A stretch of DNA of 64,000 nt from Acidimicrobiales bacterium (GTDB lineage: Bacteria; Actinomycetota; Acidimicrobiia; Acidimicrobiales; Bog-793): positions 481 through 64,480 of the forward strand of contig JBEKGS010000004.1 of the NCBI GenBank assembly GCA_050012675.1, written 5' to 3'. The position numbers and the translations under genes were made by a program. A model generated the notes under the pieces. That model was not told where the DNA came from. It saw nothing but the letters and a program-made list of their open reading frames with translations, and ran no database searches. Positions 1 through 17,315 of this stretch are shown here, one piece after another (positions within the stretch are counted from its first letter, which is position 1; the number at the start of each line of letters is the position of its first letter).

Positions 1-807
1 AAGAGCGATGCGCCCCACCCCAAAGCGCGCCTGGAGATCGGCCATCACCTCGGGCAAGGTCGCGCGATCGGCGGTGTTGCCGGAAAAGACATGGTGGGCG
101 ATCGGGATGCCGTCGGAGGTGACGAGGAGTCCGATCACGATCTGGGGCCGGTCTCCCCGGTGATCGCGGCTGTAGCCGAAGGCCTTGGCGGGGAAACGCT
201 CCGTGGTCTTCTCCTCACTTTCGAAGTAGGTAGAGGTGAGGTCGTAACAGACAAGGCGCAGGTCGAGGTTCGTAAGGTTGCACAGCTCGGTGAACAGGTG
301 CGCCTCGATGTCCTCCTTGGCATCGGCGACGGCGTCCAAAGCCCGATAAAGCCGGTCGAGCGACGGGGCCCTTCGAGCTTCCGGCAGGGCGGCGTCGGCC
401 CCGAGCCAGTCGGTGACACAGCGGCGCTTGGAAGATGGGTCCTGGAGCCGGTTGGCGACCATGGCGAACACGGCGTCGCAGAGACCAACCGAGCGCCGGC
501 GCCGGCCGATGACCTCGAAGAGCTCGTCCAACAACAACCGGGAAAAGTAGGCATCACAGGCGGCCATGGCGCCATAGGAGGGAGCGGATTCGGCGCTGAG
601 CTCGATGCTCGGTCCGCGTCCCAGTTGCACAGACAATGCCGCGACAATGCGCTCGAGCTCGCCCGAGCTCTTAAGATCCGAGACCTCGCCCAGCCGGGCG
701 ACGATCCGGTGCCGAGGCTGGCCCGACTCGTTTCGATAGGACTCGGCCAAGGTCAGATAACTGTAGACCTTCTTCCCGCTACGTACCCGGTCAATCTTCA
801 CGTACAC
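1..807 (-). CDS. IS1634/IS4-like DDE transposase, N-terminal 269 codons (3' part off-window)
   Basis: My own minus-strand translation from GTG (805-807) is open to position 1: 'VYVKIDRVRSGKKVYSYLTLAESYRNESGQPRHRIVARLGEV...LVCYDLTSTYFESEE...FGYSRDHRGDRPQIVIGLLVTSDGIPIAHHVFSGNTADRATLPEVM'. The 'YDxTSxYFE' and 'GxSxDxRxDxxQ...G.P......GNxxD' blocks are typical of IS1634/IS4 transposases. The listed + ORF 91..915 is its antisense shadow. Confidence 0.8.
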   Translation of the reverse strand, partial: MYVKIDRVRSGKKVYSYLTLAESYRNESGQPRHRIVARLGEVSDLKSSGELERIVAALSVQLGRGPSIELSAESAPSYGAMAACDAYFSRLLLDELFEVIGRRRRSVGLCDAVFAMVANRLQDPSSKRRCVTDWLGADAALPEARRAPSLDRLYRALDAVADAKEDIEAHLFTELCNLTNLDLRLVCYDLTSTYFESEEKTTERFPAKAFGYSRDHRGDRPQIVIGLLVTSDGIPIAHHVFSGNTADRATLPEVMADLQARFGVGRIAL

Positions 808-880
808 AAGAGAGAGATTAATGCCACAGGTCCGCTAGATCAAGCATCTATTTGTCGCTACATTTCACATCGCAAACCCG
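1..880 (-). mobile_element. One end of an IS1634-family (IS4 superfamily) insertion sequence; the element continues beyond the left window edge. The outer boundary (about 810-900) was not determined.
   Basis: Contains the 5' part of a DDE transposase gene (next feature). This is followed by a locally low-GC leader ('...GTAGCGACAAATAGATGCTTGATCTAGCGGACCTGTGGCATTAATCTCTCTCTT' on the minus strand). The terminal inverted repeat cannot be defined because the other end is off-window. Confidence 0.65.
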
Positions 881-903
881 ACTTTATCCACAGCTCGCCC
901 AGG

Positions 904-1155: not shown

Positions 1156-1514
1156 CGTGTAGACGACGAGCTTGGCGGACTCTCATCGCACGTCGACGAT
1201 ACCGAACCGCGTCCCAGGTCGAGCGGCACCCGACGATGCCCCTTGTGTCACCGAACGCCTGATCGGGGGAAAGGCTGAGCGAAGAGGTCAACTAGTCGGA
1301 AGCTAGTGCTCATAAGGCGTGGACCTAAGTTTCGAGTCGGTGTGCGAGACCTCGAGGTGGCCCTGGGGTGGAACGGTGCTGTTCCGCTTCTAGGTCCGCC
1401 CGCAGGCGTCGCGAGTCCGGAACCGAGGGCGGCCTGAGCCTGCGGCCTGGCAAGGCCCGCGGAAGTGGCTTTCGACCCTATGCCAGGAAAACAGGACACC
1501 ATAGGCTCGACGGA

Positions 1515-2339
1515 GTGACGAGTGTTTGGCGGTATCGACGGCCACAGTCGCTCGAGCAAGCGCTCTCGTTTCTCGAGCGTCAGGGGGCAGTGATCATGGG
1601 TGGGGGCACCAGGCTAAATGCGGGCCTCGTGCAGATGTGTGCCAGAGCCGGGCAGTCGGAGGTCGGAGGTGTGGAGATCGTGGACTTGCAGGCCCTCGAT
1701 CTCGCCGGCATCGAGCGGCGCGACGACGCGGTGGTGCGGATCGGTGCCATGACGCGGTTGCAAGAGCTCGTCGATAGCCACGACGTGCCGTCCGTCGTAC
1801 GAGAAGCAGCACGCCATGAGCTGCCGAGCACCTTGCGCGCCCAGTCCACGATCGGCGGCTGCATTGCGAGCGGCGACCCCGACGGTGAGCTGCTGGCGAC
1901 CCTGCTCGTCCACGACGGGCAAGTTCACATCGCCCAGAGGTCGGGCAGCGTCGAGATCCCGCTAGACGAGCTGCTCGCTGAGCTGCCGCTCGCTTCGGGA
2001 AGGATCATCACGGCGGTCAGCATCGACGAGCGCGGCACGTCCTCGCTGATGGGCACCGGCAGGAGCGCTGCGGACAGGCCCATTGTCGCCGTCGTGGCGC
2101 GCCAGCTCGACGGGCGGCGCTGGGTGGCAATCACCGGCGTGGCAGCCACCCCGGTTCTCGTGAAGTCCACGGCCGTCGGCAGCAGCAGCCTTCTCCCATC
2201 TGGGGATGGCCCGGCGGCGAGCGATCCGCACGGGATTTCCCGACTCGAACCGATCGGCGATTTCCGCGGCTCGAGCGAGTACCGCCGAGCCCTGGCACGG
2301 ATCCTGGCCGCACGCGCCACGGAGGCGATTTCACGATGA
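1515..2339 (+). CDS. FAD-binding subunit of a xanthine-dehydrogenase-family molybdenum hydroxylase (CoxM/YgfM-like)
   Basis: Motifs: 'PQSLEQALSFLERQGAVIMGGGTRLNAG', 'STIGGCIASGDPDGELLATLLVHDG', and C-terminal 'GDFRGSSEYRRALARILAARA' (CO-dehydrogenase flavoprotein C-domain style). The start was moved to GTG 1515, preceded by GACGGAG; the track ORF starts at 1368. The stop overlaps the next start (ATGA at 2336-2339). Confidence 0.8.
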   Translation: MTSVWRYRRPQSLEQALSFLERQGAVIMGGGTRLNAGLVQMCARAGQSEVGGVEIVDLQALDLAGIERRDDAVVRIGAMTRLQELVDSHDVPSVVREAARHELPSTLRAQSTIGGCIASGDPDGELLATLLVHDGQVHIAQRSGSVEIPLDELLAELPLASGRIITAVSIDERGTSSLMGTGRSAADRPIVAVVARQLDGRRWVAITGVAATPVLVKSTAVGSSSLLPSGDGPAASDPHGISRLEPIGDFRGSSEYRRALARILAARATEAISR

Positions 2340-5300
2340 GCGAACTCACCGAGGACAAGTGCGCTCCGGACGGGGGGCCGACCCCTCCCCAGCAGCCCGT
2401 CATGCTCGAAGTGGACCTGACGATCAACGGTGACCGGTACCGCCTGACCTGCGAGCCCGGCGACACGTTGTTCACCGTCCTACGCCGCCTGGGGCTGTTC
2501 AGCGTCCGCTTCGGGTCGGGAACCGGCGAGTCCGGCGCCGCAGCCGTGCTGTTAGACGGCAGGCTCGTCTCCGCCGACGTCATGCTCGCTGGCCAGGCTA
2601 GCGGCCACAAGGTGACGACGGTCGAGTCTCTCGACGTCGCGACTGACGAGCTCGACCCTATCCAGCAGGCCTTCGTCGATATCGGGGCCCTGCAGTCCGG
2701 ATACTCGGCGGGCGCGATGGTGCTGGCTGCTAAGGCGCTGATCGATGCCAACCCCGACCCATCCGAGACAGAGATTCGCGACGCGTTGAGCGGGATACTC
2801 GACCGCGAGACGGGCTACGTGAAGGTCGTCGAGGCGATCCGGCGTGCCGCCGCGGTGTGTCGCGGTGAGAAGGTGCCGCCGGTCGAGCCGGTCGTGCTCG
2901 AGCCGCTCACCGGCCCAGGTTCGACGGAGCGACGTGTGCCCTCAGCGGAAGCCCTGCAGGCCCCGCTTGCCATGCCTCACGTCGTCCTGTCAAGCGACGT
3001 CGCCAGCACGGCTGTGGTCGGAAAGCCCGAGCCCAAGGTCGACGCCTTACGTCTCGCCAAGGGACGACCCGTCTTCACCGACGATATCGACCTGCGCCAC
3101 ATGCTGTATGCCAAGGTGCTGCGCAGCCCTCACGCACACGCTCGTATCCTGGCTATAGACGACAGCGAGGCAAGGGCGCTGGCCGGCGTGCACGCCGTGA
3201 TCCACTACGGCAACACGCCACGGGTGAAGTACGCCTCGGGCGGTCAGACCTGGCCGAATCCCCCGCCGTGGGACCAGGTCAGCTTCGACAACAAGGTCCG
3301 CTTCGTGGGCGACCGCGTGGCGGCCGTGGCGGCCGAGACGCCGGGGATCGCCGAAGAGGCCTGCCGGCGCATCAAGGTCACCTACGAGGTCCTCCCAGGT
3401 GTGTTCGACGAGGTCGAGGCGATCACGCCTGGTGCGCCGCTAGTCCACGACGAGACAGACACCGAGGGCATCTACGACGCCGCCCACAACAAGAGCCACC
3501 ACATCGAAGGTCAGACCGTGACCGACGAGGTGCTCGAGGCCGCGTTCGCCAGCGCCAAGCACGTCTTCCAGCAGACCTTCCATGTCCAGCAGCAGCAACA
3601 CGCCAACATCGAGCCTCACATCACCATCGGCTGGCTCGACGACGACGATCGCCTCGTGCTCCGTAGCTCGACGCAGGTTCCCTACCACGTCCGCCGCATG
3701 GTGGCGCCACTGCTCGGCCTTCCGGTCAAGCGCATCCGCGTGATCAAGCCCCGGATCGGGGGCGGCTTCGGGGGCAAGCAGGAGATGCTGATCGAGGACA
3801 TCGTGGGCTACCTCGTGCTCGCCACCCGTCGTCCGGTTCGCCTCGAGCTAACGCGGTCGGAGGAGTTTGCTTCCGCCAGGTGCCGGCATGCCATGACGCT
3901 GACCCTGCGCACGGGTGTCGACGACGACGGCCATCTGGTCGCCCAGGACATGTATGTCGTCTCGAACACCGGCGCCTACGGCACCCATGGTTTCACGGTC
4001 AGCACCGTTGGCGGCATGCACGGGATGTCGATATACAACTGCCCAGCCAAGCGCTTCCGATGCGACGTTGTTTACACGAACCGTCCCGTGTCGGGTGCCT
4101 TCCGCGGCTACGGGGCCCCTCAGAACTTCTTCGCGGTCGAGTCGCAGATGGACGATATCGCGCGCGCTCTTGGCATGGACCCCTACGAGCTGCGACGCAA
4201 GAACTGGGTGCGGGTCGGCGACCCCCTCGACATCGTCCCACGGCTCGGTGAGCGCGGCGATGTCGTCGAGATCCCACAAGAGGAGCTGCCGCACATCATG
4301 AGCTGCGGCCTCCAGGAGTGCGGAGCGCAAGGGACGCGCGCGATCGGCTGGGAACGTCGGAACGACCCGTCCTGGCGACAACCGGCGGACCGCCCGAACA
4401 TCAGGCGCGGCATCGGCATGGGTTCGGCCATCCAGGGCTCCGGGATTCCCTTCGTCGACATGGGGGCGTGCTCGCTCAAGATCAACGACGACGGCTCGTT
4501 CAACCTGCTCGTCGGGGCCACGGACGTGGGCGGGGGATCGGACACCGTGCTCGCCCAGATTGTCGCCGAGGTGCTCGGCGTCGAGCTCAACGACATCATC
4601 GTCTGCTCGTCTGACACCGACATCACTCCTTTCGACGTCGGCGCGTACGCCTCGAGCACGACCTACGTCTCGGGCGGAGCAGCTAAGAAGGCGGCCGAAG
4701 CCGCCCGGGCCCGCATCGTGACCCGCGCCGCGAGGCTGCTCGATCTCGACGATCCCGGTTCGGTCGAGCTGCACGACCGGCGGGCATGGGGTCCCGACGG
4801 GCGCTCGATCTCGCTCGGCGACCTCGCCCTCAACTCGCTGCACACCGAGGATCAGGAGCAGATAATGGGAACAGCGTCGCACTACGGGACGGTCGCGGCG
4901 CCTCCCTTCGCGGTCCAGCTTGCCGAGGTCGAAGTGGACGTCGAGACCGGTCAGGTGACCGTGAAGAAGCTAGTCACTGCCATCGACTGCGGGGTCCCGA
5001 TCAATCCGATCACTGCGAGCGGCCAGGTGGAGGGGGCGATGCTGCAGTCCCTCGGGTACGCGTTGACCGAGGATCTCGTTCTCGACCGTTCGGGCAAGCT
5101 GGTCAATGACCGCTTCGGACCGTACTGGATCTTCCGGGCGGACGACGCCCCAGTGTGCGAGGCGATCCTCGTGCAAACGATGGAGCCGTCGGGCCCGTTC
5201 GGGGCCAAGGCGGTCGGTGAGGTCCCCATGGACGGGATCGCACCGGCAGTGCGCAACGCCGTCCTCAACGCCACAGGAGTGAAGATCAACCAGCTCCCGT

Positions 5301-5353
5301 TGCTGCCCGAGCGAGTCTGGCGAGCCCTGAACAAGGTCCCGACCAGCGGTTGA
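2336..5353 (+). CDS. Fused small(2Fe-2S-like)/large(molybdopterin) subunit of a xanthine-dehydrogenase-family hydroxylase (XdhD-like architecture), 1005 aa; its FeS module lacks the cluster cysteines
   Basis: Large-subunit hallmarks: 'STQVPYHVRRMVAPLLGLPVKRIRVIKPRIGGGFGGKQE', 'GAFRGYGAPQNFFAVESQMD', and the C-terminal catalytic-Glu block 'GPFGAKAVGEVPMDGIAPAV'. The N-terminal ~175 aa align with Fer2/Fer2_2 modules. Translationally coupled to the FAD subunit. Confidence 0.9.
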   Translation: MSELTEDKCAPDGGPTPPQQPVMLEVDLTINGDRYRLTCEPGDTLFTVLRRLGLFSVRFGSGTGESGAAAVLLDGRLVSADVMLAGQASGHKVTTVESLDVATDELDPIQQAFVDIGALQSGYSAGAMVLAAKALIDANPDPSETEIRDALSGILDRETGYVKVVEAIRRAAAVCRGEKVPPVEPVVLEPLTGPGSTERRVPSAEALQAPLAMPHVVLSSDVASTAVVGKPEPKVDALRLAKGRPVFTDDIDLRHMLYAKVLRSPHAHARILAIDDSEARALAGVHAVIHYGNTPRVKYASGGQTWPNPPPWDQVSFDNKVRFVGDRVAAVAAETPGIAEEACRRIKVTYEVLPGVFDEVEAITPGAPLVHDETDTEGIYDAAHNKSHHIEGQTVTDEVLEAAFASAKHVFQQTFHVQQQQHANIEPHITIGWLDDDDRLVLRSSTQVPYHVRRMVAPLLGLPVKRIRVIKPRIGGGFGGKQEMLIEDIVGYLVLATRRPVRLELTRSEEFASARCRHAMTLTLRTGVDDDGHLVAQDMYVVSNTGAYGTHGFTVSTVGGMHGMSIYNCPAKRFRCDVVYTNRPVSGAFRGYGAPQNFFAVESQMDDIARALGMDPYELRRKNWVRVGDPLDIVPRLGERGDVVEIPQEELPHIMSCGLQECGAQGTRAIGWERRNDPSWRQPADRPNIRRGIGMGSAIQGSGIPFVDMGACSLKINDDGSFNLLVGATDVGGGSDTVLAQIVAEVLGVELNDIIVCSSDTDITPFDVGAYASSTTYVSGGAAKKAAEAARARIVTRAARLLDLDDPGSVELHDRRAWGPDGRSISLGDLALNSLHTEDQEQIMGTASHYGTVAAPPFAVQLAEVEVDVETGQVTVKKLVTAIDCGVPINPITASGQVEGAMLQSLGYALTEDLVLDRSGKLVNDRFGPYWIFRADDAPVCEAILVQTMEPSGPFGAKAVGEVPMDGIAPAVRNAVLNATGVKINQLPLLPERVWRALNKVPTSG
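2405..2860 (+). other. Degenerate 2Fe-2S module (both cluster-binding motifs present in outline, all eight Cys ligands substituted)
   Basis: 'FGSGTGESGAAAVLLDGRLVSADV' replaces the canonical 'GCxxGxCGxCxV...C'. 'QSGYSAGA' replaces 'QCGxCxPG'. 'GILDRETGY' replaces 'GNLCRCTGY'. The in-window paralogue at 43868.. has all eight: 'GCGEGACGSCTVLVDGLPVRAC', 'QCGYCTPG', 'GNLCRCGVY'. Confidence 0.75.
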
Positions 5354-5360
5354 CAAGACG

Positions 5361-5376
5361 GGCCCCGTACGGGGCC
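5361..5376 (+). terminator. GC-rich hairpin directly after the hydroxylase stop (terminator-like, no clear U-tract)
   Basis: 'GGCCCCGTACGGGGCC' forms a 6-bp G/C stem with a GTAC loop, 8 nt after the TGA at 5351-5353. It sits between convergent genes. Confidence 0.4.
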
Positions 5377-5626
5377 TGGTGCACTTAGGAAGTTCACCGA
5401 CTACCCATTGACAGGGGGCACCCTTTCCAGGGAGCGGCCTCGCTTTCATACGAACCCGTCGCCGTTGGTTGCTCAATGTGGCGCGGAAGAAGCGGCGCCC
5501 GTGCCAACCCGCTCCTTAGCGTGACCATCGGGCCGGGACGATCGACGACGGAAATGACGGCAAACCTAGGAGGGCTCCCAGCCGGCGAAGAGGGTTTTCT
5601 GCGCTTCGAGCCTTAGTCCATACCTG

Positions 5627-6460
5627 CTACCGCGCCAGCATGAGGATGGCTTCCAATACGCCGCCGCCGATTGCTCGGCTCTTGTCCGAGACGGTGAAGC
5701 AGTGCTCGCGACCGGCGCGTGGGTCCACGTCTCCTACCTTCATCCCGACATGGACCTGGAATTCAGGCCGGATCAGGCCCCGCAACACACCGTCGATCTC
5801 GGCTCGCAACAGGGTCTCGCCGCCGGCGTCCGCGACGCGCAGCACGGGCGTGCCGACCCGGACCAGGTCTCCGATGTCCGCAAGGTTCTCTGCCACACCC
5901 GCAACGGGCGAATGAAGGACCCTCTCGCTGCCTTTTCCCGCGATCTCGCCGGGAACGCCGGTGTTGGGTTCAGCGTGCCCCGTCAGGAAGATTCTGCCCA
6001 GATCATGGCCGCGATTCGTCTCTACTACGGCGTGGGCGTCCACGCCGGCCTCGAATCCCGGCCCGAGAGCCACGACGACCTGGGCCATGTCGATGTTGGT
6101 GCCGAGGTTGCGCTTGGCGATTATCGCGTCAACTAGGGCCAATGGCCTGAGGGCCCCCAGCGCCGAGCATCCCGGGTCTGCCAGCAGAGGCACAGGGCCC
6201 TCCGGTCCCCAGCGCTCCAAGAGTCCCCGCAGTTCGGCGAGCGTTCCCACGCGCATGGAACGCACTCCTTCCACCTGCGCCTCGCCTTCGTACATGGCCT
6301 CGGACAGGCACACGGTGCGCCGGATCGAGCTTGGCCTCGGTTGCTCAAGTGCGGCCACCCGAAACCCGGATCGTACGAGCCGGAGAATTGTGCCGGTAGC
6401 CAGATCCCCGGCCCCCCTCACGACAACCAGCTCTCCATTCACCAAGCCCATACTTTTCAT
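5627..6460 (-). CDS. Selenium-dependent molybdenum hydroxylase system protein, YqeB family (stand-alone C-terminal-type)
   Basis: 'GELVVVRGAGDLATGTILRLVRSGFRVAALEQPRPSSIRRTVCLSEAMYEGEAQVEGV' matches my memory of the EF2563/YqeB-family core ('GAGDLATG...IRRTV.FSEA.Y.G...VEG'). Genomic context: XdhC, YqeC and SelD. Confidence 0.75.
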   Translation of the reverse strand: MKSMGLVNGELVVVRGAGDLATGTILRLVRSGFRVAALEQPRPSSIRRTVCLSEAMYEGEAQVEGVRSMRVGTLAELRGLLERWGPEGPVPLLADPGCSALGALRPLALVDAIIAKRNLGTNIDMAQVVVALGPGFEAGVDAHAVVETNRGHDLGRIFLTGHAEPNTGVPGEIAGKGSERVLHSPVAGVAENLADIGDLVRVGTPVLRVADAGGETLLRAEIDGVLRGLIRPEFQVHVGMKVGDVDPRAGREHCFTVSDKSRAIGGGVLEAILMLAR

Positions 6461-6538
6461 TGTGCCCGGTACGGAAGGTCATCGAGCGCAAGATCCTGTT
6501 CGCTGGGCCGGCCCGAAGGGCGGGGGCTCGCCCGATCC

Positions 6539-7603
6539 TCAGATCACGGCGGCGGCCCGCCGAGCGGCGTGGGCCTGCTTCAAGGTGGCCACGGTCTTGG
6601 AGTTGTGCCGCACCGCGACGATCTCTGCCAAGATCGATACAGCCAGCTCTGGCGGAGTCTCGGCGTCAATATTCATGCCGACCGGGGTGAACAAGGCGTC
6701 TATCCGGGCCGGGTCGAATCCCTCCTGATGCAGTTGTTCGACCATCATCCGCGTCTTCCGGGCACTGCCCATCACTCCGACGTAACGGGACTTCCGCGGC
6801 AGCACAGCCCGGACGCAGGTCAGATCCAAGCCGTGGTTTCTCGTGACGATCACGATGTAGGTCGAAGTGTCTAGGGGCAGCTGCGCGATCACCTGGGTGA
6901 ACTCGCCGTGCATCCTGTCGACCTCAGGGGGGAAACGATCCGGACCGAGGAGTTCGGCCCGGTCGTCCACCACCGTGATCTGGAAGCCGAGCGGCGCTGC
7001 CGCGAAGGCCAGGGCCTGTCCCACGTGACCGGCGCCCAAGATCACTAGTTTCTCCTCGGGCACCAAGGGGTCGTAGAAGACGCCGGCATCGCGATCGAAC
7101 CTGGGTTCGCCGGTGAGGAAGGCACGGGCCGCCACGTCGGCTTTCCAGTCCCGGAAATCACCAGCGATCTGCCTGCCTCCTTCGTCCACCAGGGCGGTGA
7201 CGACTTCTAGGGACTCCTGTCCATCAAGGATCTTCTTGATCGAGAGAACCCGCTCTCCGCGCGCCAGCCGCTCCTGGATCTGGCGGTAGGTGCCGGGCTC
7301 AGTCACGCGCTCGATGAGGACCGTGCTCGTTCCGCCGCATACCCCGCCGGGGTCGAGGATGGTCGCGCCCCGGCTCTCGATGTGCAGCAGGGTCGGCTGG
7401 CCACTCGCGAAGCACTCCCAGCAAGCCGCCAGCGCCCGGGCTTCCGGATGTCCGCCTCCGATGCTGCCGGTCGAGCCGCCATCGGGAGTCACCAGCATCT
7501 TGGAGCCTGCATGGCGTGGGGCCGAGCCTCTGACGTCAAGGATGGTCGCCAGGACGAGGGGCGCCTGGGCTGTGGCGACAGCCTGGAGTAGATCCCCTCT
7601 CAC
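6539..7603 (-). CDS. xdhC: XdhC/CoxI-family molybdenum-cofactor insertion/sulfuration chaperone
   Basis: N-terminal XdhC_CoxI block 'LATILDVRGSAPRHAGSKMLVTPDGGSTGSIGGG'; Rossmann block 'LVILGAGHVGQALAFAA'; C-terminal 'GVMGSARKTRMMVEQL...GMNIDAETPPELAVSILAEIVAV'. GTG start with AGGAGA 5 nt upstream. Confidence 0.85.
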   Translation of the reverse strand: MRGDLLQAVATAQAPLVLATILDVRGSAPRHAGSKMLVTPDGGSTGSIGGGHPEARALAACWECFASGQPTLLHIESRGATILDPGGVCGGTSTVLIERVTEPGTYRQIQERLARGERVLSIKKILDGQESLEVVTALVDEGGRQIAGDFRDWKADVAARAFLTGEPRFDRDAGVFYDPLVPEEKLVILGAGHVGQALAFAAAPLGFQITVVDDRAELLGPDRFPPEVDRMHGEFTQVIAQLPLDTSTYIVIVTRNHGLDLTCVRAVLPRKSRYVGVMGSARKTRMMVEQLHQEGFDPARIDALFTPVGMNIDAETPPELAVSILAEIVAVRHNSKTVATLKQAHAARRAAAVI

Positions 7604-8366
7604 CGTGTCTCCTGGCGCTCGTCGAGCACCGCTGCGGCGGCGTCCTTCCGGAACGACCTCGGGTAGCGGCTACGCCGGCGCGGCTGGTCGGGGCAGGCGT
7701 CGTTGCCTGGTGCCATGACACTTTGCTGTTCGGAGTGTGCGGCATGAAACGAACGCATGAGAACACGATCAAGGCCCCTGCAGCCCGACCGGTGAGAAGC
7801 GTCACTACTGGGAATCATCAGGCCTCAGGTCGATCGGCTGCGTAAGAAGGCTTTAGCCTCATGGGGAAACGCTCGAGGGCGTAGCTTAGGGCGACAAGAC
7901 CGTTGAACAAAGGCGCTTCCGCACAGCTCAGGATAGACATAACGTGCGAGGTCGGGCGATGACGGATCAGAGAGGCGGCGTGAGTGAGTGCAGCCACCGC
8001 GCCGGAAGGCGCTTTGCCGCAGCGGCGTCGTCCCTCCTCTGCCGCCGGCCCGCCACCGGTGGAGAACTGCCAAGCGCCCTCGTAGCGTGAGGCCGGAGGT
8101 GGCGACTCGTCGGAGGTCGATCGCGGCGACGCGAGGCGAAAGTCCGAGCGCGCGCCGCTTCGCCTCGGAAAAGACCCCGGCGGGTCTTGCGGCGTCCGTT
8201 AGCCATAAGTATCGGGCGAAGGGACGGAGCGTCGCCTCTGGTAGCTTGGCAGGGCAAGCGGCGTGTGGAACCCGAGCTCGCCAACCGGCGAGCCGGGCCG
8301 GGGGGCTGCGAACCGGTCGAGGTGCTAGATGTCAGGTCCGCGGTCGTGAACCGCCCGGAGAGCCAC

Positions 8367-9131
8367 ATGAGCATTGGCGATGCCATCCACTTGCTCCTGC
8401 CTCTCTCTGGTGCCGTGGTCTCGATCGTGGGAGCGGGCGGCAAGACGACGGTCTTGTTCGAGTTGGGCGAGAGCCTTGCCAATCGCGGTTCGAACATACT
8501 CCTCACGACTACCACGAACATCTTCGACCCTCGCGTGGAGCCGGATCGGCAGTTCGATCACGTGCTGTTAGAGGCCGGTCTGGCTGAACCTTTCGAAGAG
8601 CCGGGACCGTTCCAAGAGCCGGGCGTAATCCCCCCCTTCCTTGAGCACGGAACTTCTCCTGAGACACGGGGACGGCTTATCGTCCTGGGCTCTCGCGAGG
8701 TGAAAGGTGCGGACAAGCTCCAAGGGATCCATCCCAGTTGGATGGCGAGGCTGAGTCGGGATTGGGCCTACGTGCTTGTGGAAGCAGACGGCGCCAAGGG
8801 CCGGTCCATCAAAGCCCCCGGAGATCATGAACCCGTCGTGCCGCCGTCGACAGGAGCCGTGATCGGCGTTGTCGGCTTGGATTGCCTGGGGCGCCCCATG
8901 GACGGGGCTACCGTCCACCGCCCGGAGCGCTTCCAGGCGGTGACCGGCCTGGCCGCCGGACCCCTGGAGACAGATCTGACCGCTGTCTGCTCGCACGAGG
9001 GATCAAATATTCCGGGACACGTCCTGATGCTCGCATTCGCTTCCGGCTTTGGGACAGGAGATTCGGCCGTGGGGCCAGGCATCGCCGAAGAGCCGCCCGG
9101 ATCCATGCTGAGGTTCGGGGCCTGCCGATGA
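8367..9131 (+). CDS. yqeC: Selenium-dependent hydroxylase accessory protein YqeC (P-loop protein)
   Basis: 'VVSIVGAGGKTTVLFELGESLANRGSNILLTTTTNIFDP' and 'YVLVEADGAKGRSIKAPGDHEPVVP' are YqeC-family signatures. I chose the ATG at 8367 inside track ORF 8187..9131. The stop overlaps the next start (ATGA 9128-9131). Confidence 0.8.
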   Translation: MSIGDAIHLLLPLSGAVVSIVGAGGKTTVLFELGESLANRGSNILLTTTTNIFDPRVEPDRQFDHVLLEAGLAEPFEEPGPFQEPGVIPPFLEHGTSPETRGRLIVLGSREVKGADKLQGIHPSWMARLSRDWAYVLVEADGAKGRSIKAPGDHEPVVPPSTGAVIGVVGLDCLGRPMDGATVHRPERFQAVTGLAAGPLETDLTAVCSHEGSNIPGHVLMLAFASGFGTGDSAVGPGIAEEPPGSMLRFGACR

Positions 9132-10261
9132 TCTACCTCGACAACGCGGCGACCAGCCATCCCAAGGCTCCGGGCGTGGCAGAGGCCATGGTGCGCTTCA
9201 TGACCGACACCGGAGCGAGCCCCGGCAGGGGCACCCATCCCCAGGCCCAGGCGGCGGACCGCCTACTTTTCGCGGTGCGGGAGCGCTGCGCCGCGTTCCT
9301 GGGGGTACCCGAACCCGAACGCCTCGTGTTCACCAAGAACGCCACGGAAGCCCTCAACCTGGTGCTCATGGGCCAGGTGCCTGCCGGAGGCTCGGTAATT
9401 CTGAGCTCGTTGGAGCACAACGCGGTCATGCGTCCTTTGCACTACCTGGAAGCCCACCGGGGCGTGCGGCTATCTCAGATCCCTTTCGACGCCTGTGGCC
9501 GCCCGGATCCCGAGTCCCTCCGCGTGGCGACGGCACGGCCGGCGGACCTCTTCGTCTTGACTGCCGCGAGCAACGTGACCGGCTGCATCACGCCCGTCGC
9601 AGAAGTCTCACGCCTCTGTAGACGGGCTGCGATCCCTCTTTGCGTCGACGCCAGCCAGGCTGTGGGCCATGTGACGCTGCCCATGGATGGAGTCAGCTTC
9701 CTGTGCTTCTCCGGCCACAAGGGGATGCTCGGGCCCGTTGGCACCGGAGGGCTGTACCTCGCGCCCGGATTTCATCCTGAGCCTCTCCTGCGCGGAGGGA
9801 CGGGGAGCCAATCCGAAAGCGAAGAGCAGCCCGACTTCCTGCCCGATCGTTACGAGGCTGGAACTCTCAACCTCGTAGGACTGGCGGGTCTGCTTGCGGC
9901 CCTGGACTTCCTCGAGGCCCGAGGTCCCGCCAGTATCCGCGAGCGGGAGGCGTCTTTGTGCAAGCGACTGCTCGGCGGCATGCTGGATCTTCCCGGCGTC
10001 TCTTCGCCAGGGCCCGAGCCCGGCGCAGCTCGCGTGCCCGTCGTTTCACTGTCGGTTGATGGCCAAGATTTGGGGGAGATTGGCCTTGAATTCAACCGGC
10101 GGGACATAGCAGTGCGCGTGGGTCTGCATTGTGCGGCCGCCGCCCATCGCAGCATCGGCACCTTCGGGGCGGGCGGAACCCTGCGGTTCTCACCGGGCTT
10201 CGCTACCAGTGAGGAAGAGATCGACGCGGCCATCGAGACCTTGGAGGCGATCCTTAGATGA
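9128..10261 (+). CDS. Class-V aminotransferase, cysteine desulfurase / selenocysteine lyase-like (EF2568-type member of selenium-hydroxylase loci)
   Basis: 'MIYLDNAATSHPKAPGV'; PLP-lysine block 'FSGHKGMLGPVGTGGLY'; active-site Cys block 'RVGLHCAAAAHRSIG'. Coupled on both sides by ATGA overlaps. Confidence 0.85.
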   Translation: MIYLDNAATSHPKAPGVAEAMVRFMTDTGASPGRGTHPQAQAADRLLFAVRERCAAFLGVPEPERLVFTKNATEALNLVLMGQVPAGGSVILSSLEHNAVMRPLHYLEAHRGVRLSQIPFDACGRPDPESLRVATARPADLFVLTAASNVTGCITPVAEVSRLCRRAAIPLCVDASQAVGHVTLPMDGVSFLCFSGHKGMLGPVGTGGLYLAPGFHPEPLLRGGTGSQSESEEQPDFLPDRYEAGTLNLVGLAGLLAALDFLEARGPASIREREASLCKRLLGGMLDLPGVSSPGPEPGAARVPVVSLSVDGQDLGEIGLEFNRRDIAVRVGLHCAAAAHRSIGTFGAGGTLRFSPGFATSEEEIDAAIETLEAILR

Positions 10262-11298
10262 GCGATTCTCCGGCGTTGACGACCTACACTCGCTTCTCCG
10301 GCTGCGGCGCGAAGCTCGGCCCAGGGGTGCTCGACGAGGCGCTGTGCGGACTTGAACAGCCCGCCTACCCGCAGCTTCTGGCTGGGTTCTCCAGCTTCGA
10401 GGACGCGGGGCTTTTCCTTTTGGACGACGGTCTCGCACTGGTGCAGACCGTGGACTTCTTCCCACCCATTGTGGACGACCCGTACATGTTCGGGCGCATC
10501 GCCGCCGCCAATGCTCTCTCGGACGTGTACGCCATGGGTGCACGTCCCCTCACAGCCCTCTGCCTCGTCTGTTTTCCCCTCAAGAGTCTGGGCCTGGACA
10601 GCTTGAAAGCCATGATGGAAGGTGGCCTGGACGCTCTGACCGAGGCTGGTTGCGCCTTGCTAGGGGGGCACAGCGTCGAGGATGCGGAACCGAAACTGGG
10701 CTACGCCGTGACCGGGCTGGTCGATCCCGAAAGAGCCTGGCGCAACAACACGCTTCGACCCGGAGCTGCCTTGATCCTCACCAAGCCTCTCGGCACAGGA
10801 CTCCTGAACATGGCGCTGAGAGCTGAGTGCGCGAGCGAGGAAGCTCTGAACCTCGCTCAGACGTCGATGGCCCTGCTCAACAAGCGAGCAGCGGAGATTC
10901 TGGCGGAGGGCGACGTCTGGGCATGCACAGATGTCACGGGCTTCGGCTTGGCCGGTCACGCCGCCGAGATGGTGGACGGCGCGCCTTGCGGGCTGAAGAT
11001 CCGGTACGCCGATCTGCCGCTGATCCCCGGTGTGGAGGAATGGGCCGCCATGGGACTCGTCCCCGAGGGCACCTTCCGGAACAAGCAGGGCCGCATACGC
11101 TGCATCGAGAACGTCGATGCCCTCGATCCGGTCATGCTCGACATCCTCTTCGACCCCCAGACTTCCGGAGGCCTGCTGGCTGCTGTTCCCGTCGATCGGG
11201 CGACGCAGCTGCAGAAGGACTTGAGAGCCGAGGGAGTGTCCGCAGCCCTGATCGGCGAGACTGGTGGGTTGCCGGGCACCGTGGAGATCCTCGTCTGA
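10258..11298 (+). CDS. selD: Selenide, water dikinase (selenophosphate synthetase), Cys-type
   Basis: N-terminal 'LTTYTRFSGCGAKLGPGVLDEAL' (active-site Cys-Gly-Ala-Lys; Cys, not an in-frame TGA). AIR-synthase-like blocks: 'DDPYMFGRIAAANALSDVYAMGARPL', 'LLGGHSVEDAEPKLGYAVTG', 'ACTDVTGFGLAGHAAEM'. Confidence 0.9.
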   Translation: MSDSPALTTYTRFSGCGAKLGPGVLDEALCGLEQPAYPQLLAGFSSFEDAGLFLLDDGLALVQTVDFFPPIVDDPYMFGRIAAANALSDVYAMGARPLTALCLVCFPLKSLGLDSLKAMMEGGLDALTEAGCALLGGHSVEDAEPKLGYAVTGLVDPERAWRNNTLRPGAALILTKPLGTGLLNMALRAECASEEALNLAQTSMALLNKRAAEILAEGDVWACTDVTGFGLAGHAAEMVDGAPCGLKIRYADLPLIPGVEEWAAMGLVPEGTFRNKQGRIRCIENVDALDPVMLDILFDPQTSGGLLAAVPVDRATQLQKDLRAEGVSAALIGETGGLPGTVEILV

Positions 11299-11570
11299 TG
11301 ATGGTTTTGGCGACTTTCCTGTCCACACACGCGGCTCTTCGAGCTGAACAGGAACTGACGGGGGAGTTATCCGTGGAGCTGATCCCCGTGCCTCGCCAAA
11401 TTCGCAGCGACTGTGGATTTGGTCTCCTTGTTGGCCCGCTGGACCCTCCCGGGGCTGGCCGCGCCGCGGAGATCCTCAAGGGTAAGGGCGCCACAGGCCT
11501 CTGGCGCGTCTTCGAACTGGATTCACCGACCTCGCGGCGCAAGGAGAAACGCTATGAGCTCATCCCGTAG
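11298..11570 (+). CDS. DUF3343-family small protein (putative Se/S carrier-like)
   Basis: 'MMVLATFLSTHAALRAEQEL...ELIPVPRQIRSDCGFGLLV' resembles the DUF3343 pattern (beta-alpha start and 'P.P..I...CG..I'). The ATG overlaps the selD stop (TGATG). The family commonly neighbours selD/yedF. Confidence 0.6.
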   Translation: MMVLATFLSTHAALRAEQELTGELSVELIPVPRQIRSDCGFGLLVGPLDPPGAGRAAEILKGKGATGLWRVFELDSPTSRRKEKRYELIP

Positions 11571-12180
11571 GGTCCTAGATGCTCGGGACCTCGCTTGCCC
11601 GCAGCCCGTGATTCTGACCCGCAAGGCCCTTGCCGAGGGCGGTTTCAGTGAGCTGGAGGTGATCGTGAACACCATCTCCGCAAGAGAGAACGTCGCTCGC
11701 TTCGCCGGCCATGCGGGCTGCACCATCGGCGGCATCGAAGAGTCCGGCGAGGAGACGCGGATCGTGATCCAGCCGGCCGCGGCCAACTGGTCCGACTCGA
11801 CCTCAACGGAATCCATCACCGACGCCACGGTGCCCCTCGTGGAACCCGGCATCCAGACCGTCTTCCTCTCCAGCCGGACCATCGGGAGAGGCGATGACGA
11901 ACTAGGCGCCCTGCTCATGCGGGCCTTCCTCTACACCCTTAGCGAGTCCGAAACTGTCCCTCAACGGGTGCTGCTCATGAACAGCGGAGTAACGCTGGCG
12001 GCCGAAGCCTCAGAGCATCTCGAGAACTTGCGGCGTCTTGCCGATCTTGGTGTCGAGATCTACGCCTGTGGCGCCTGTCTCGAGTTCTACAAGCTCACGG
12101 ATCAGCTGGCCGTGGGCCAAGTCTCGAACATGCAGGAGATCACTGAGTTTCTGCTCCAAGGCAAAGCCCTCTGTCTGTAG
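11554..12180 (+). CDS. yedF: Selenium metabolism protein YedF (TusA/SirA-like N-domain with CPxP motif plus DsrE-like C-domain)
   Basis: 'RVLDARDLACPQPVILTRKAL' is the TusA-type CPxP motif. C-terminal 'VFLSSRTIGRGDDELGALLMRAFLYTL...VLLMNSGVTL...LGVEIYACGACL' is DsrE/YedF-like. The ATG at 11554 overlaps the end of the DUF3343 gene by 17 nt. Confidence 0.75.
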   Translation: MSSSRRVLDARDLACPQPVILTRKALAEGGFSELEVIVNTISARENVARFAGHAGCTIGGIEESGEETRIVIQPAAANWSDSTSTESITDATVPLVEPGIQTVFLSSRTIGRGDDELGALLMRAFLYTLSESETVPQRVLLMNSGVTLAAEASEHLENLRRLADLGVEIYACGACLEFYKLTDQLAVGQVSNMQEITEFLLQGKALCL

Positions 12181-12606
12181 AGGCATAGACCTGAAGACGC
12201 GCCTCACCAATGAAGCGGCCAGGTCCCAGATCGTCTCGCGTGTCGTACGTGGGAAAGGCCCTTTCGACATGCTGCAGGTCTACGCGCCCGTAATGCCGGG
12301 AGCGCTGACTCCCAGGGGCACGCCGACCGAGGGTCCGAGAGTATTGGTTGGCACTCAGGACGTGCTTGAGACCTGAAGACGGCGAAGCCGCCGAGCGGAT
12401 CGAAACACCTACTGTGCCCGCCAACTAGCGAACTGGGATTCGACTGGGTGTCGGATGGGCGAACGCGTACTCACCGATCTCGAGGGTCGCTTGTGCGAAT
12501 CCCAGGCGTAACTCAGCGCGAGAACGAAGCGTCGACTTCAACGGGGTCGGTTCCAGCCGGCGACCCGCTCGAGCCGGACCCGGTTCGACGTAGCAGACTG
12601 GAGACC

Positions 12607-15081
12607 ATGGCTATCACCGCGGTCGACCCCTCAACTGGAGCGGGGCGCACATCTGCGGCGTCAGTTCCGGACGGTGGGGAGAGCGCCCATCTGCCTTTGC
12701 TGAAGGTGCGGGGCCTTTCCATGGCCTACGGCGACCTCCAGGTCCTGAGCGACGTCGACTTCGAGGTGGCGACCGGCGCGCTGGTCGCGCTGGCGGGCGA
12801 GAACGGTGCCGGCAAATCGACCCTTGTTCGTTGTATAGCCGGGGACACCATCCCCGATGCCGGGGAGGTGGCCCTAGACGGGGTGCGGGTCCGCTCCAAT
12901 GCCGCGGCCGCCTCCGCCGGACTGGCCGTGGTGTGGCAGGACGCTGCTCTGTGCGACAACCTGGACGTGGCCAGCAACCTGTTCCTGGGCCGCGAGCGGG
13001 GCCGGTGGTTCACCGCCGACGCCAAGAACACTCTCGCCACCAAGGCCATCCTCGCTTCGTACGGGATAAAGCTGGACAGCGGCCGCCGGGTTCGCTCGCT
13101 GTCCGCCGGCCAGCGCCAGTTGGTCGCCGTGGTCCGGGCCATCCAGGCGCGACCGCGGTTGCTGGTGCTGGACGAGCCCACGGCGTCGCTCGGCGTGCAG
13201 GAGGCGCGCCAGGTCGAAGAGCTCATAATGAAATTGAACGCCGAGGGCACCACCATCCTGTTGGTGTCCCATGATGTCGACCAGGTCTTTCACCTGGCTG
13301 ACCGCATCCTCGTACTCCACGGGGGGCGCATTGTCGCGGACCTGTCCCCCTCGCAGACCCACCCCGAAGACGTCGTGGCCATCATGTCGGGTCACACCCC
13401 CGACGCCAGCGCCCGCCGCCAGTTCAACCGTCTGCAGACCCTGGTCGACCAGCTCGCCTCGGCTACGCCCAACTCGACCCTGCCGTTGGTCCTGTCGGCG
13501 CTGGCTTCGGTGCTCAGCATCGAACAGCTCTGCCTCCACCTCTCCGAGGAACGCAGCCTGCGCCTGGTGGCCAGCGCCGGCCTGCCACCCCCGCTCGTGC
13601 GGGCCTGGGCGTCCGTGCCGATGGGCGCAGAGGGTGGCCCGATGGGCATGGTCGCCGAGAACAAGCGGGTTGTGGTCGTGGAGGACATCGACAGGAGTGA
13701 CTCCTGGGAGCGCTTCGCAGCTCTGGGGCGAGGCGCCGGCATTCGCAGCAGCTGGTCGGTGCCCCTGATTGGCGCGAGCGGACTTATCGGGGTGATAACC
13801 GGGTGCCAGCCGTTCGTGGGGCGGCCGCAGCGTGACCAGATGGACCTCGTGTCGCTGTACGCGGGCTACGCCGCCGGCGCCATCGAGCGTGACCGCCTGT
13901 TCGGCGAGGTGACGGCGCGCAACCGCGTGCTCGAGACCATCCGCGAGGTGCTAGAGACGCTGGCGGGTCCCGAACAAGTGTCCAAGGGCCTGGTCCTGGC
14001 CCTGCAATCTCTGCAGCGGGGGCTGCGCGCCACGGAGATCGAGCTGTGGTCGCGCGTTTCGGCCGGCCTTCCCCGCTGCACGGCCTGCGTCACTGCCGAC
14101 AACCTGGGGTACTGGGAACCGCCGCGGCGCGACGCCGCCGACGCCATACGCGCCTTTTCCGGCCCGGCACCCGTCTACAGCCCCCGTATCCTGCGCCCCG
14201 GGGCGACGGGTCAGGTGGTGGCCACCGCCTTTGACGTCCCGGGCGGCCGGGCTGCGCTCATTGCCCGATGGGAGGCTCCATTGCCCGACGATGCCCTCGC
14301 CCTGCTGGCCGACGGCGCCCACTCGGTGCGGTTGGCCCTGGAACGGGACGAGGCCGAACAGGCTCACCAGCAGACGGCGGCCTTGCGCCGGTCGAACCGG
14401 CTGCAGCGCGATTTCCTTTCCCGTCTGAGCCACGAGCTGCGCACGCCGCTCACGGCCATCCGCGGCTACGCCAGCACCCTGCTGGCGCCGGACGTGACCT
14501 GGGACGACGAGTCCAAGCTGCGTTTTTTGAGCCGCATCGCGAGCGAGTCGGCCCGCCTAGGCAGGCTGGTGGGCGACCTGCTCGACTTTTCGGCCATAGA
14601 GGCCGGACTGCTGCGCCTGCAGCCGGACTGGTGCGACCTCCACTTGGTGCTCGAAGCGGCCGTCTCATGCCTACCGCCCGGCCCGTCCCAAGCCGTCACC
14701 ATCGAGTGCCCACCGTCGATCGGCCCCGTCTGGGCTGACCATGACCGCCTCGAGCAGGTATTCGTAAACCTGCTGGACAATGCCGTGCGCCACAACGACA
14801 GCGACATCTGCATCAGGGTGACGGTATCCCCGGGCGGCAATGAGACGGTGGCGGTCCGGGTGGCCGACAACGGCCGCGGCCTGCCTCCGGAGCTGCGCGC
14901 CCGCCTGTTGGACTCTCAGGGGCACGGGGCCATCAGCGACGACGGCGCCGGGCTCGGCCTGTCGATCGCCCGCGGCATCGTGCGGGCGCACGGCGGTCAC
15001 CTAGGCCTGGAGAGGTCGGAACAAGGGACATGTTTCCTCATCGTGCTCCCCGTCGAGGGCCCCGGAGGATACCTCGCATGA
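12607..15081 (+). CDS. Soluble hybrid protein: ABC-transporter nucleotide-binding domain :: GAF x2 :: HisKA :: HATPase_c histidine kinase
   Basis: NBD motifs: 'GENGAGKST', 'VVWQD', 'LSAGQRQ', 'LLVLDEPTASL', 'LVSHD'. GAF-like segments: '...RLVASAGLPPPLV...VVVVEDIDRSD...SSWSVPLIGASGLIGVITG...'. H-box: 'FLSRLSHELRTPLTAIRGYAS'. N/G boxes: 'NLLDNAVRHN', 'VADNGRGLP', 'GAGLGLSIARGIVRAHGG'. No hydrophobic TM segment. The ATG at 12607 (GGAG 5 nt upstream) is preferred; the track start is 12448. Confidence 0.85.
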   Translation: MAITAVDPSTGAGRTSAASVPDGGESAHLPLLKVRGLSMAYGDLQVLSDVDFEVATGALVALAGENGAGKSTLVRCIAGDTIPDAGEVALDGVRVRSNAAAASAGLAVVWQDAALCDNLDVASNLFLGRERGRWFTADAKNTLATKAILASYGIKLDSGRRVRSLSAGQRQLVAVVRAIQARPRLLVLDEPTASLGVQEARQVEELIMKLNAEGTTILLVSHDVDQVFHLADRILVLHGGRIVADLSPSQTHPEDVVAIMSGHTPDASARRQFNRLQTLVDQLASATPNSTLPLVLSALASVLSIEQLCLHLSEERSLRLVASAGLPPPLVRAWASVPMGAEGGPMGMVAENKRVVVVEDIDRSDSWERFAALGRGAGIRSSWSVPLIGASGLIGVITGCQPFVGRPQRDQMDLVSLYAGYAAGAIERDRLFGEVTARNRVLETIREVLETLAGPEQVSKGLVLALQSLQRGLRATEIELWSRVSAGLPRCTACVTADNLGYWEPPRRDAADAIRAFSGPAPVYSPRILRPGATGQVVATAFDVPGGRAALIARWEAPLPDDALALLADGAHSVRLALERDEAEQAHQQTAALRRSNRLQRDFLSRLSHELRTPLTAIRGYASTLLAPDVTWDDESKLRFLSRIASESARLGRLVGDLLDFSAIEAGLLRLQPDWCDLHLVLEAAVSCLPPGPSQAVTIECPPSIGPVWADHDRLEQVFVNLLDNAVRHNDSDICIRVTVSPGGNETVAVRVADNGRGLPPELRARLLDSQGHGAISDDGAGLGLSIARGIVRAHGGHLGLERSEQGTCFLIVLPVEGPGGYLA

Positions 15082-15085
15082 AGCC

Positions 15086-15790: not shown

Positions 15791-15798
15791 CTCAGAAT

Positions 15799-15857
15799 CG
15801 TTACGGATGTTCACGGTTTATTAATGCTCACTCCCTCACGTTCACGTTTCGTTAACA
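15799..15857 (+). promoter_or_regulatory. Candidate response-regulator binding / promoter region: clustered direct repeats of a (G)TTCACG/GTTACGG-type motif in a low-GC spacer
   Basis: 'CGTTACGGATGTTCACGGTTTATTAATGCTCACTCCCTCACGTTCACGTTTCGTTAAC'. GTTACGG and GTTCACGG lie about 10 bp apart. TCACGT occurs in tandem at 15836-15847, about 31 bp from the first TCACG. OmpR-family regulators typically bind direct repeats with helical periodicity. No experimental support. Confidence 0.3.
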
Positions 15858-17295: not shown

Positions 17296-17315
17296 CCGGT
17301 AGCCGCTGAGTCATC

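Follow-up and report, generated by a model that had tools for sequence, protein, structure and literature searches.

The window analyzed here, a stretch of 64 kb from contig JBEKGS010000004.1 of an Acidimicrobiales bacterium, carries close to one end a conserved block of ~10.8 kb (block A), in which the genes of a molybdenum hydroxylase stand beside a cassette of selenium-maturation genes (Table 1). Coordinates are positions in the window and come from six-frame open reading frames (ORFs) and direct reading of the sequence. Markers were called among about 55 window ORFs by Pfam domains and by NCBIfam models, whose scores are given in bits against the trusted cut-off. The block opens with a gene for a subunit that binds flavin adenine dinucleotide (FAD), joined by an ATGA overlap to the gene for a fused polypeptide that combines an iron-sulfur (FeS)-like domain with the molybdopterin-binding part (the Mo subunit). 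The genes xdhC and, immediately after it, yqeB occupy the minus strand and converge on the hydroxylase genes, and an operon of five genes, yqeC to yedF, diverges from them. Its successive genes overlap (ATGA at 9128-9131 and 10258-10261, TGATG at 11296-11300, and 17 nt at 11554-11570). The gene list, coordinates and overlapping junctions proposed in an earlier reading of the letters alone (the sequence-only reading) were all reproduced. Its description of the locus as 'complete' holds in that every gene is present, but yqeC lacks 53 conserved codons that the relatives keep. G+C content is ~65% across the window, and composition does not break at the hydroxylase and selenium locus.

The divergent intergenic region between xdhC and yqeC (7604-8366, 763 bp) presumably holds both promoters. 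In L007, one of the close relatives described below, part of it (~7613-7888) shows no nucleotide conservation, and the region had no Rfam match. A promoter and terminator scan of 800-12600 gave results at or below shuffle expectation and is uninformative for this organism.

Table 1. Coordinates of block A, its genes and the features beside it.
Feature	Position in window	Strand	Basis
N-terminal part of IS1634-family transposase, cut by window edge	1..834	-	NCBIfam NF033559
Conserved block A: hydroxylase and selenium-maturation cassette	1430..12200		Edges of nucleotide similarity to close relatives
FAD-binding subunit, YgfM-like	1515..2339 (alternative GTG start 1522)	+	Pfam FAD_binding_5
Fused FeS-like/molybdopterin-binding subunit, XdhD-like, 1005 aa	2336..5353	+	Pfam Fer2_2, Ald_Xan_dh_C, MoCoBD_1, MoCoBD_2
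Degenerate 2x[2Fe-2S] domain, aa 24-178 of fused subunit	2405..2869	+	Alignment to FeS structures
yqeB, stand-alone TIGR03309 domain	5627..6460	-	NCBIfam
xdhC-family molybdenum cofactor (Moco) chaperone	6539..7603	-	Pfam XdhC_CoxI and XdhC_C
yqeC lacking 53 internal codons (159 bp, in frame) at 8947/8948	8367..9131	+	TIGR03172
Class-V aminotransferase, EF2568/SclA (selenocysteine lyase) type	9128..10261	+	TIGR01977, Aminotran_5
selD, Cys-type selenophosphate synthetase	10258..11298	+	TIGR00476
DUF3343 / putative selenium/sulfur carrier, 90 aa	11298..11570	+	Pfam PF11823
yedF, TusA-like and DsrE-like domains	11554..12180	+	TIGR03527, Pfam TusA and DsrE
Block B, possibly associated: kinase fusion, regulator, xylose-type ABC uptake genes	12448..19863	+	Pfam, NCBIfam

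Most of the selenium markers exceeded the cut-offs of their family models. YqeB scored 329 bits (TIGR03309; cut-off 220), SelD 358 (TIGR00476; 125), YedF 188 (TIGR03527; 110) and the DUF3343 protein 44 (Pfam Se_S_carrier, PF11823; 25). YqeC passed with 139-140 bits (TIGR03172; 73) though 53 conserved residues are deleted. The failure of the proposed yqeB, yqeC and yedF genes to reach these cut-offs, which would have spoken against the sequence-only reading, was thus not seen. The aminotransferase, which had been expected to match the EF2568 type, fell narrowly under the corresponding cut-off (TIGR01977, 357.9 vs. 377 bits); it scored 289 vs. 525 bits with the SclA model (NF040779) and 240 bits with Pfam Aminotran_5. 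EF2568 itself has been characterized as a selenocysteine lyase (bioRxiv 10.1101/2020.02.07.939272). The N-terminal SGCGAK motif of SelD is of the Cys type, as had been read. XdhC passes both of its Pfam models and lies under the cut-off of both NCBIfam equivalogs. E. coli YqeB matches it at 41% identity, and window xdhC and yqeB together are the split equivalent of the fused E. coli protein; E. coli and Haloarcula marismortui carry the fusion, and the separation of the two genes claimed for the window is borne out. With YqeB, a co-localized selD and a hydroxylase of the xanthine oxidoreductase (XOR) family with an intact Mo site, the locus contains the marker set of Haft and Self (PMC2276186), which the sequence-only reading had recognized.

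Searches for other uses of selenium gave null results at the scale of the window. No SelA, SelB or SelU domain was present in the ~55 ORFs scanned, and tRNA and Rfam scans of the window gave no match, hence no tRNA-Sec, selenocysteine insertion sequence or Moco riboswitch was seen; this agrees with the earlier remark that no selenocysteine or selenouridine machinery is visible here. A selenoneine-type use of SelD was also considered and rejected, as the SelD equivalog passes, yqeB and yqeC adjoin it, and the block holds no other biosynthetic genes. An exact-sequence look-up of YqeB returned no record, probably owing to a differing start call, and PDB sequence searches with YqeB, YqeC, YedF and the DUF3343 protein gave no matches.

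The hydroxylase resembles E. coli XdhD-YgfM in architecture more than in overall sequence score. Its FAD subunit (Pfam FAD_binding_5, 72 bits) has the YgfM family as best NCBIfam model (TIGR03312, 78 vs. 241 bits), is 33% identical to E. coli YgfM and keeps the GGT.LN and T[IL]GG motifs; it contains only two Cys, so it has no 4Fe-4S insert. The fused subunit passed its Pfam domain models, including the hammerhead and both MoCoBD domains, and no NCBIfam equivalog, with XdhA (NF043082, 670 vs. 780 bits) and XdhD (TIGR03313, 649 vs. 1102 bits) as its best models. Its Mo-site motifs (GGGFGGKQE, TQVPY, FRGYGAPQ) and catalytic-Glu motif (GAKAVGE) are present and strictly conserved across the enzyme family. 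E. coli XdhD-YgfM converts uric acid to 2,8-dioxopurine, is reported to be active with NADH and is needed for urate degradation in vivo, and Glu606 of XdhD has been proposed to orient urate (PMC12507026). This position aligns with a Glu conserved in the window family as LGE(R/G) (LGERG vs. IGEGK) in a segment absent from XdhA; the segment lies in an insertion, so the certainty of the alignment is moderate. We therefore read the window enzyme, from its sequence and the gene neighborhoods of its relatives, as a purine hydroxylase/dehydroxylase of the XdhD-YgfM type that is not an NCBIfam equivalog. The fused FeS-like/Mo polypeptide, the FAD gene immediately upstream, the FeS-like domain free of cysteine and the Glu606 equivalent are present, in line with the ygfM-xdhD likeness noticed earlier; the TIGR03313 and TIGR03312 cut-offs are not reached, and the enzyme does not cluster with reductive uricolysis genes in the window. 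The closest solved structure by sequence is the alpha subunit of 4-hydroxybenzoyl-CoA reductase (1rm6_A, 351 bits). The PDB ranking also raised a carbon monoxide dehydrogenase or 4-hydroxybenzoyl-CoA reductase identity, which we rejected on gene context.

One feature of this enzyme may surprise specialists. Residues 24-178 of the fused subunit align end to end with the 2x[2Fe-2S] subunits 8uem_C, 3hrd_D, 4zoh_C and 1dgj_A (E ~1e-29), and yet all eight cluster cysteines are replaced (S61, S66, A69, D81, S121, S124, D156, E158). We scanned the Mo subunit against one genome per GTDB species, which returned 57 loci (related loci and contigs are denoted here by labels such as L007). The pattern S-[ST]-[AGS]-[DE]-S-[SAGN]-D-E was present in all 53 related loci with an extractable domain, the replacement residues being conserved and not drifting. 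E. coli K-12 XdhD likewise has no Cys in its first ~185 residues (pattern DADSSNSD). The E. coli gene (L065, NC_000913.3, 21317-24187) is annotated 'Fe-S binding' though it is Cys-free there. By comparison, all eight Cys are present in E. coli XdhC and in one of the H. marismortui FeS subunits, and the other H. marismortui subunit keeps Cys at seven of the eight aligned positions. Nor does either subunit of the window enzyme offer another cluster motif; the Mo subunit holds 13 scattered Cys that form none.

To place this loss more broadly, we counted cysteines in 151 sequences, the query and the 150 best representatives drawn from 1.84 billion proteins. All eight Cys are kept in 95, none at the covered positions in 28, and some in the remaining 28. 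The 28 Cys-free sequences, some of them fragments, comprise the window family and an XdhD-like group. The Cys-free domain characterizes a broader family, with E. coli XdhD among its members, and is not peculiar to the window. Partial losers include full-length proteins that have lost one cluster, either the first (DSDG, DTDA or STDG followed by CCCC) or the second (CCCC-SSDE, CCCC-SESE), which suggests stepwise and repeated cluster decay in the enzyme superfamily. On whether the loss in XdhD and the window family was single or convergent, a neighbor-joining tree of the domain and one of the full-length proteins disagree. In two loci of the sister clade described below (L014 at ~13133 and L036 at ~13071), the Cys-free Mo subunit is followed directly by a gene that resembles a canonical FeS subunit, 39-40% identical to E. 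coli XdhC, and may belong to a second hydroxylase.

We considered a working FeS domain with alternative ligands and rejected it, given Cys at none of the eight positions; we know of no described [2Fe-2S] site ligated entirely by oxygen. The FeS-like domain of the window enzyme is therefore predicted to be unable to bind [2Fe-2S] clusters, and with these ligands gone the canonical electron route (Mo - FeS I - FeS II - FAD) would be impossible. Two [2Fe-2S] clusters are considered a universal feature of xanthine oxidase family enzymes. The missing cysteines of XdhD found no mention in the papers on this enzyme that we consulted, which came from full-text searches outside the subscription journals.

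The relatives of the enzyme connect it to selenium genes and to purine catabolism by their neighborhoods. The closest loci (91-96% identity) come from uncultured Acidimicrobiaceae and Acidimicrobiales in Stordalen, SPRUCE and Danish peat samples, and more distant ones from other Actinomycetota and from Caldilineales/Chloroflexota. Among public contigs, 22 encode an identical SelD; they belong to peat and bog metagenomes and to the metagenome-assembled genome (MAG) GCA_964587825.1. These matches identify the host as an uncultured peat-bog member of the Acidimicrobiaceae. We counted neighbors within ~10 kb of each locus; genes absent there may lie elsewhere in the genome. The five closest orthologues (L007-L010 and L048, 91-96%) keep the whole arrangement of block A. 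At 59-69% identity, 17 loci have xdhC-yqeB beside the FAD-Mo pair, with yqeC as well in 16 of them. Altogether yqeB lies near the FAD-Mo pair in 22 loci, across deep branches of the enzyme family. The proposal that the adjacent hydroxylase is the client of the selenium cofactor is supported, by neighborhood, by these five full arrangements and 17 linked loci.

Other branches of the family adjoin genes of a different kind. The sister clade (74-76% identity) has the order ssnA, deaminase, hyuA, FAD, Mo, and its hyuA-like gene passes the D-hydantoinase model (476 vs. 393 bits). In this and other clades the ssnA-like genes are 36-40% and the hyuA-like genes 41-43% identical to those of E. coli, and combinations of SsnA (a truncated query scored 405 bits vs. 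a cut-off of 444), mer-like F420 reductases of the luciferase-like (LLM) family and carbamoyltransferases occur in some clades. Relatives at 59-76% identity adjoin ssnA, hyuA or F420-type reductase genes and/or xdhC-yqeB-yqeC, which links the family both to the reductive uric-acid (2,8-dioxopurine) pathway described in 2025 and to selenium. In that pathway, a variant in Chloroflexota uses an F420-type (luciferase-family) reductase, and SsnA occurs in Actinomycetota too (PMC12507026). In a small full-length tree, E. coli XdhD branches as the sister of the entire family, and the clade of the window pairs with the one linked to ssnA-hyuA; our trees are quick neighbor-joining trees without support values. 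One MAG (SPRUCE 132; L009 and L060) holds two paralogues, one at 91% identity with the full selenium operon and one at 69% on another contig without nearby selenium genes. Four independent, near-identical metagenome contigs (L001, L002, L003 and L005) end at window positions 2092-2894, late in the FAD gene or within the region of the FeS-like domain; strain variation or a repeat may have broken the assembly there.

Among these relatives, the window is distinguished by its yqeC. The 159 bp missing at 8947/8948 are present in L001-L003, which are 99.5-99.8% identical to the window, and in L007, L008, L010 and L048 (80-92% nucleotide identity across the yqeC stretch). The reading frame is kept, and the 53 residues lost (including LLLNKAD) correspond to a conserved part of the E. 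coli and H. marismortui YqeC proteins in the alignment; model positions ~156-193 of TIGR03172 are missing, and the score falls to 140 bits from 176.5 in the intact protein of L001. From its Walker A sequence (VGAGGKTT) and EADG motif, YqeC would be a P-loop nucleoside triphosphatase. In Clostridioides difficile, deletion of yqeC is without a growth phenotype (PMC11448449), so the deletion in the window may be tolerated. Either maturation in this genome runs without YqeC or it is impaired.

Next, the edges of block A were located by blastn of L007, L008, L010 and L048 against the window. Similarity begins at 1428-1454 and ends at 12184-12257, and the flanks differ between genomes. The ~10.8-kb block is thus kept in different contexts by close relatives. 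In the window, L001 and L002 it is followed by block B; in L048 block B lies on the other side, upstream of block A; and L007 has a segment from window ~21.9 kb upstream of block A. The flanks of L008 encode unrelated proteins (FAD-oxidase/4Fe-4S, phosphotriesterase-family, SBP_bac_5 and GGDEF-EAL), and those of L010 include FtsH. This fits an accessory, relocatable block, at least by sequence comparison, and the accessory or mobile status proposed earlier is supported by these differing contexts, not by the insertion sequence (IS) that had prompted the proposal. Only short, chance-level matches were found among terminal direct or inverted repeats that might bound block A or the IS, and no integrase was found. 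The IS1634-type element itself was called correctly: its transposase passes the family model (NF033559, 173 vs. 100 bits, model positions 1-211 of 483) and lacks a Pfam match, its DDE domain falling beyond the window edge. Only the N-terminal half of the transposase is in the window, and the ends of the IS are thus undefined. The ORF ends 680 bp from the start of the FAD gene and ~600 bp from block A, and no gene in the window has been disrupted by the element.

Because the placement of block B varies, and it does not adjoin block A in L007, L008 or L010, its link to block A is weak. It begins with a single ORF (12448-15081, plus strand) that joins an ABC-transporter ATPase to GAF and HisKA/HATPase_c domains, an unusual fusion of ATPase and sensor kinase, and continues with an OmpR-type regulator (15086-15790) and xylose-type ABC uptake genes for a binding protein, ATPase and permease (16024-19863). 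Farther along, an AmmeMemoRadiSam system (24853-26873, minus strand; radical SAM protein, TIGR04337, 605 bits, and an adjacent Memo-like gene) is unrelated to the selenium cassette. A second XOR-family gene, an FeS-Mo fusion with eight of eight Cys, lies at ~44040-46444 (plus strand); its best NCBIfam model is that of selenium-dependent xanthine dehydrogenase (256 vs. 830 bits). As called, this long ORF shares sequence with a gene for an FtsX-type permease that runs in the other direction (41164-44103).

Taken together, these observations indicate that block A is probably a self-contained module, encoding both a selenium-dependent molybdenum hydroxylase of the XdhD-YgfM type and the proteins that serve it. 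In such a module, the EF2568/SclA-type lyase would release selenium from selenocysteine, the DUF3343 protein and YedF (TusA-DsrE) would carry it, and the Cys-type SelD would convert it to selenophosphate, the product of this enzyme. XdhC would hold the molybdenum cofactor, while YqeB, aided by the P-loop protein YqeC, would install the labile selenium ligand and pass the cofactor to the adjacent enzyme. We infer the order of these steps from knowledge of the families, and likewise the substrate and selenium as the terminal Mo ligand. XdhC-type proteins are known to hold and insert Moco (PMC2997495), and in C. difficile yqeB and selD are required for growth on xanthine and urate (PMC11448449). 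A clostridial 2,8-dioxopurine dehydrogenase (DOPDH) was inactive when purified from a selD mutant; no residue signature separates selenium- from sulfur-dependent hydroxylases (bioRxiv 10.1101/2025.04.24.650524).

Several observations weigh against this interpretation. The Mo and FAD subunits lie far under the XdhD and YgfM equivalog cut-offs, and the Mo subunit is no more similar to XdhD than to XdhA (35% identity to each). No ssnA, hyuA, ygfK or F420 reductase gene stands beside the enzyme in the window, where the nearest LLM gene is 26 kb off. There are 27 loci without yqeB within 10 kb, including the whole 74-76% sister clade, most loci at 67-71% and the Chloroflexota-type loci. Selenium use by the window enzyme is drawn from its neighborhood and is not readable from its sequence, and we found no demonstration of selenium dependence for E. 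coli XdhD-YgfM in the XdhD literature consulted. Finally, the yqeC deletion and the adjoining IS may mean that the module is decaying in this strain.

The selenium genes might instead serve another Mo hydroxylase, or several, with the XdhD-like neighbor using a sulfido ligand and its adjacency reflecting the packaging of an island. The second XOR-family gene at ~44.0-46.4 kb, with all its cluster cysteines, is a candidate client, and others could be encoded elsewhere in the genome. In E. coli, several enzymes have been proposed to share YqeB as their chaperone (PMC2997495), and the 27 loci lacking a nearby yqeB point the same way. We nevertheless consider this unlikely: chance packaging is hard to reconcile with an adjacency that recurs on deep branches in 22 loci, and the second hydroxylase lies 32 kb off, outside the conserved block. 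Somewhat more weight, though still a minor share, goes to a module that is degenerating here and may no longer make a selenium enzyme, even though sister populations do. None of eight close relatives shares the deletion, which takes out conserved yqeC sequence, and an IS1634 transposase is confirmed close by. Set against this, the deletion is in frame, all other genes are intact and 99-100% identical to those of other contigs, no gene in the window is interrupted by the IS, and the C. difficile deletion mutant grows without a phenotype (PMC11448449).

The fused protein could also have left redox chemistry altogether and act as a cofactor store, scaffold or sensor, as the absence of all eight ligands and of any alternative motif in either subunit might imply. 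This seems highly improbable, since the Mo-site motifs and catalytic Glu are strictly conserved, the replacement residues do not drift, and E. coli XdhD-YgfM, equally Cys-free by sequence, is reported to be active with NADH and needed for urate degradation in vivo (PMC12507026). A question of a different kind is whether selD serves mainly the synthesis of selenocysteine or selenouridine, so that the genome is not an 'orphan SelD' genome and the link to the hydroxylase is secondary. Most selD genomes carry more than one selenium trait (PMC2276186; PMC5029168), which gives this option a real chance, if one well short of even. Within block A, by contrast, translational coupling ties selD to DUF3343, yedF and the gene of the selenocysteine lyase type, xdhC-yqeB forms its divergent partner, and the 64-kb window holds no selenocysteine or selenouridine genes or tRNA-Sec. 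Such a genome is compatible with a self-contained selenium-hydroxylase module and not opposed to it.

The loss of cluster ligands poses a separate question of mechanism. We tentatively propose, as a possibility that we ourselves doubt, that XdhD-type hydroxylases, including the window enzyme and E. coli XdhD, work without either [2Fe-2S] cluster while retaining the FAD subunit and a conserved but empty FeS-like scaffold, and that electrons reach the Mo/Se center by a route not yet described. Possible routes include another quaternary arrangement, a non-cysteinyl cofactor on the conserved Ser, Thr, Asp and Glu residues, and direct reaction at Mo. The loss of clusters may be tied to a reductive direction of the reaction with selenium.

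Work on the selenium-cofactor trait has so far centered on organisms of the gut and on clostridia; these findings extend it to free-living, high-GC Acidimicrobiaceae of peat bogs, and tie an actinobacterial and Chloroflexota enzyme family to selenium-maturation genes and the reductive urate pathway. With mobilization, carriers, SelD, XdhC, YqeB, YqeC and client in 10.8 kb, block A is a candidate for rebuilding selenium-cofactor maturation in a foreign host, and the natural yqeC deletion variant offers a ready test of the need for YqeC. The Cys-free domain contradicts 'Fe-S binding' annotations and raises a question of electron transfer for an enzyme that has already been characterized.

Among known systems, 4-hydroxybenzoyl-CoA reductase (1rm6) is the best PDB match of the window Mo domain. 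This enzyme catalyzes a reductive dehydroxylation; it keeps the two [2Fe-2S] clusters, and its FAD subunit contains an additional [4Fe-4S] cluster. The window FAD subunit, in contrast, has two Cys in total, and the gene context is that of purines and not of aromatic CoA compounds. The clostridial hydroxylases (Clostridium sporogenes XdhAC/DOPDH and Eubacterium barkeri nicotinate dehydrogenase, 3HRD) share the XOR-family Mo site, and 3HRD subunits match the window protein, but the FeS subunit of 3HRD keeps all Cys at the aligned positions. DOPDH has iron-sulfur domains and no FAD domain, and dependence on selenium or SelD has been shown experimentally for clostridial enzymes (bioRxiv 10.1101/2025.04.24.650524).

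The loci of Enterococcus faecalis (EF2563-EF2570) and H. marismortui (pNG700) likewise gather selD, yqeB, yqeC and a TusA/YedF-type carrier around a Mo hydroxylase, with the EF2568 lyase in E. faecalis (Haft and Self 2008, PMC2276186). H. marismortui differs in having separate FeS subunits with 7-8 of 8 cluster Cys, a YqeB fused to XdhC, hydroxylases with 42-44% identity to the window Mo subunit and no FAD gene annotated in the 31-kb stretch viewed. The window host is a free-living peat member of the Acidimicrobiaceae, whereas the selenium-cofactor trait was found by Peng et al. to favor host-associated organisms (PMC5029168).

E. coli XdhD-YgfM shares the FAD gene directly upstream of, and overlapping, the fused FeS-like/Mo gene, an FeS-like domain without cluster Cys, and a Glu aligned with Glu606 in an insertion that XdhA lacks. 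It also has yqeB and yqeC in its neighborhood, and ssnA and hyuA stand beside xdhD as they do beside relatives of the window enzyme. It differs in sequence (~35% identity, far under equivalog cut-offs) and in the residues that replace the cysteines (DADSSNSD vs. SSADSSDE in the window). The window lacks ygfK, ssnA and hyuA, and relatives have an F420-type LLM reductase in the place of YgfK. YqeB, fused in E. coli, is split in the window, and selD and the selenium carriers are part of the window block, which is not so in E. coli. Thus, the marker set is the known one of Haft and Self, and what sets this locus apart from the E. coli, E. faecalis and haloarchaeal cases is the local absence of pathway genes, the split YqeB, the packing into one block, and the host and its habitat.

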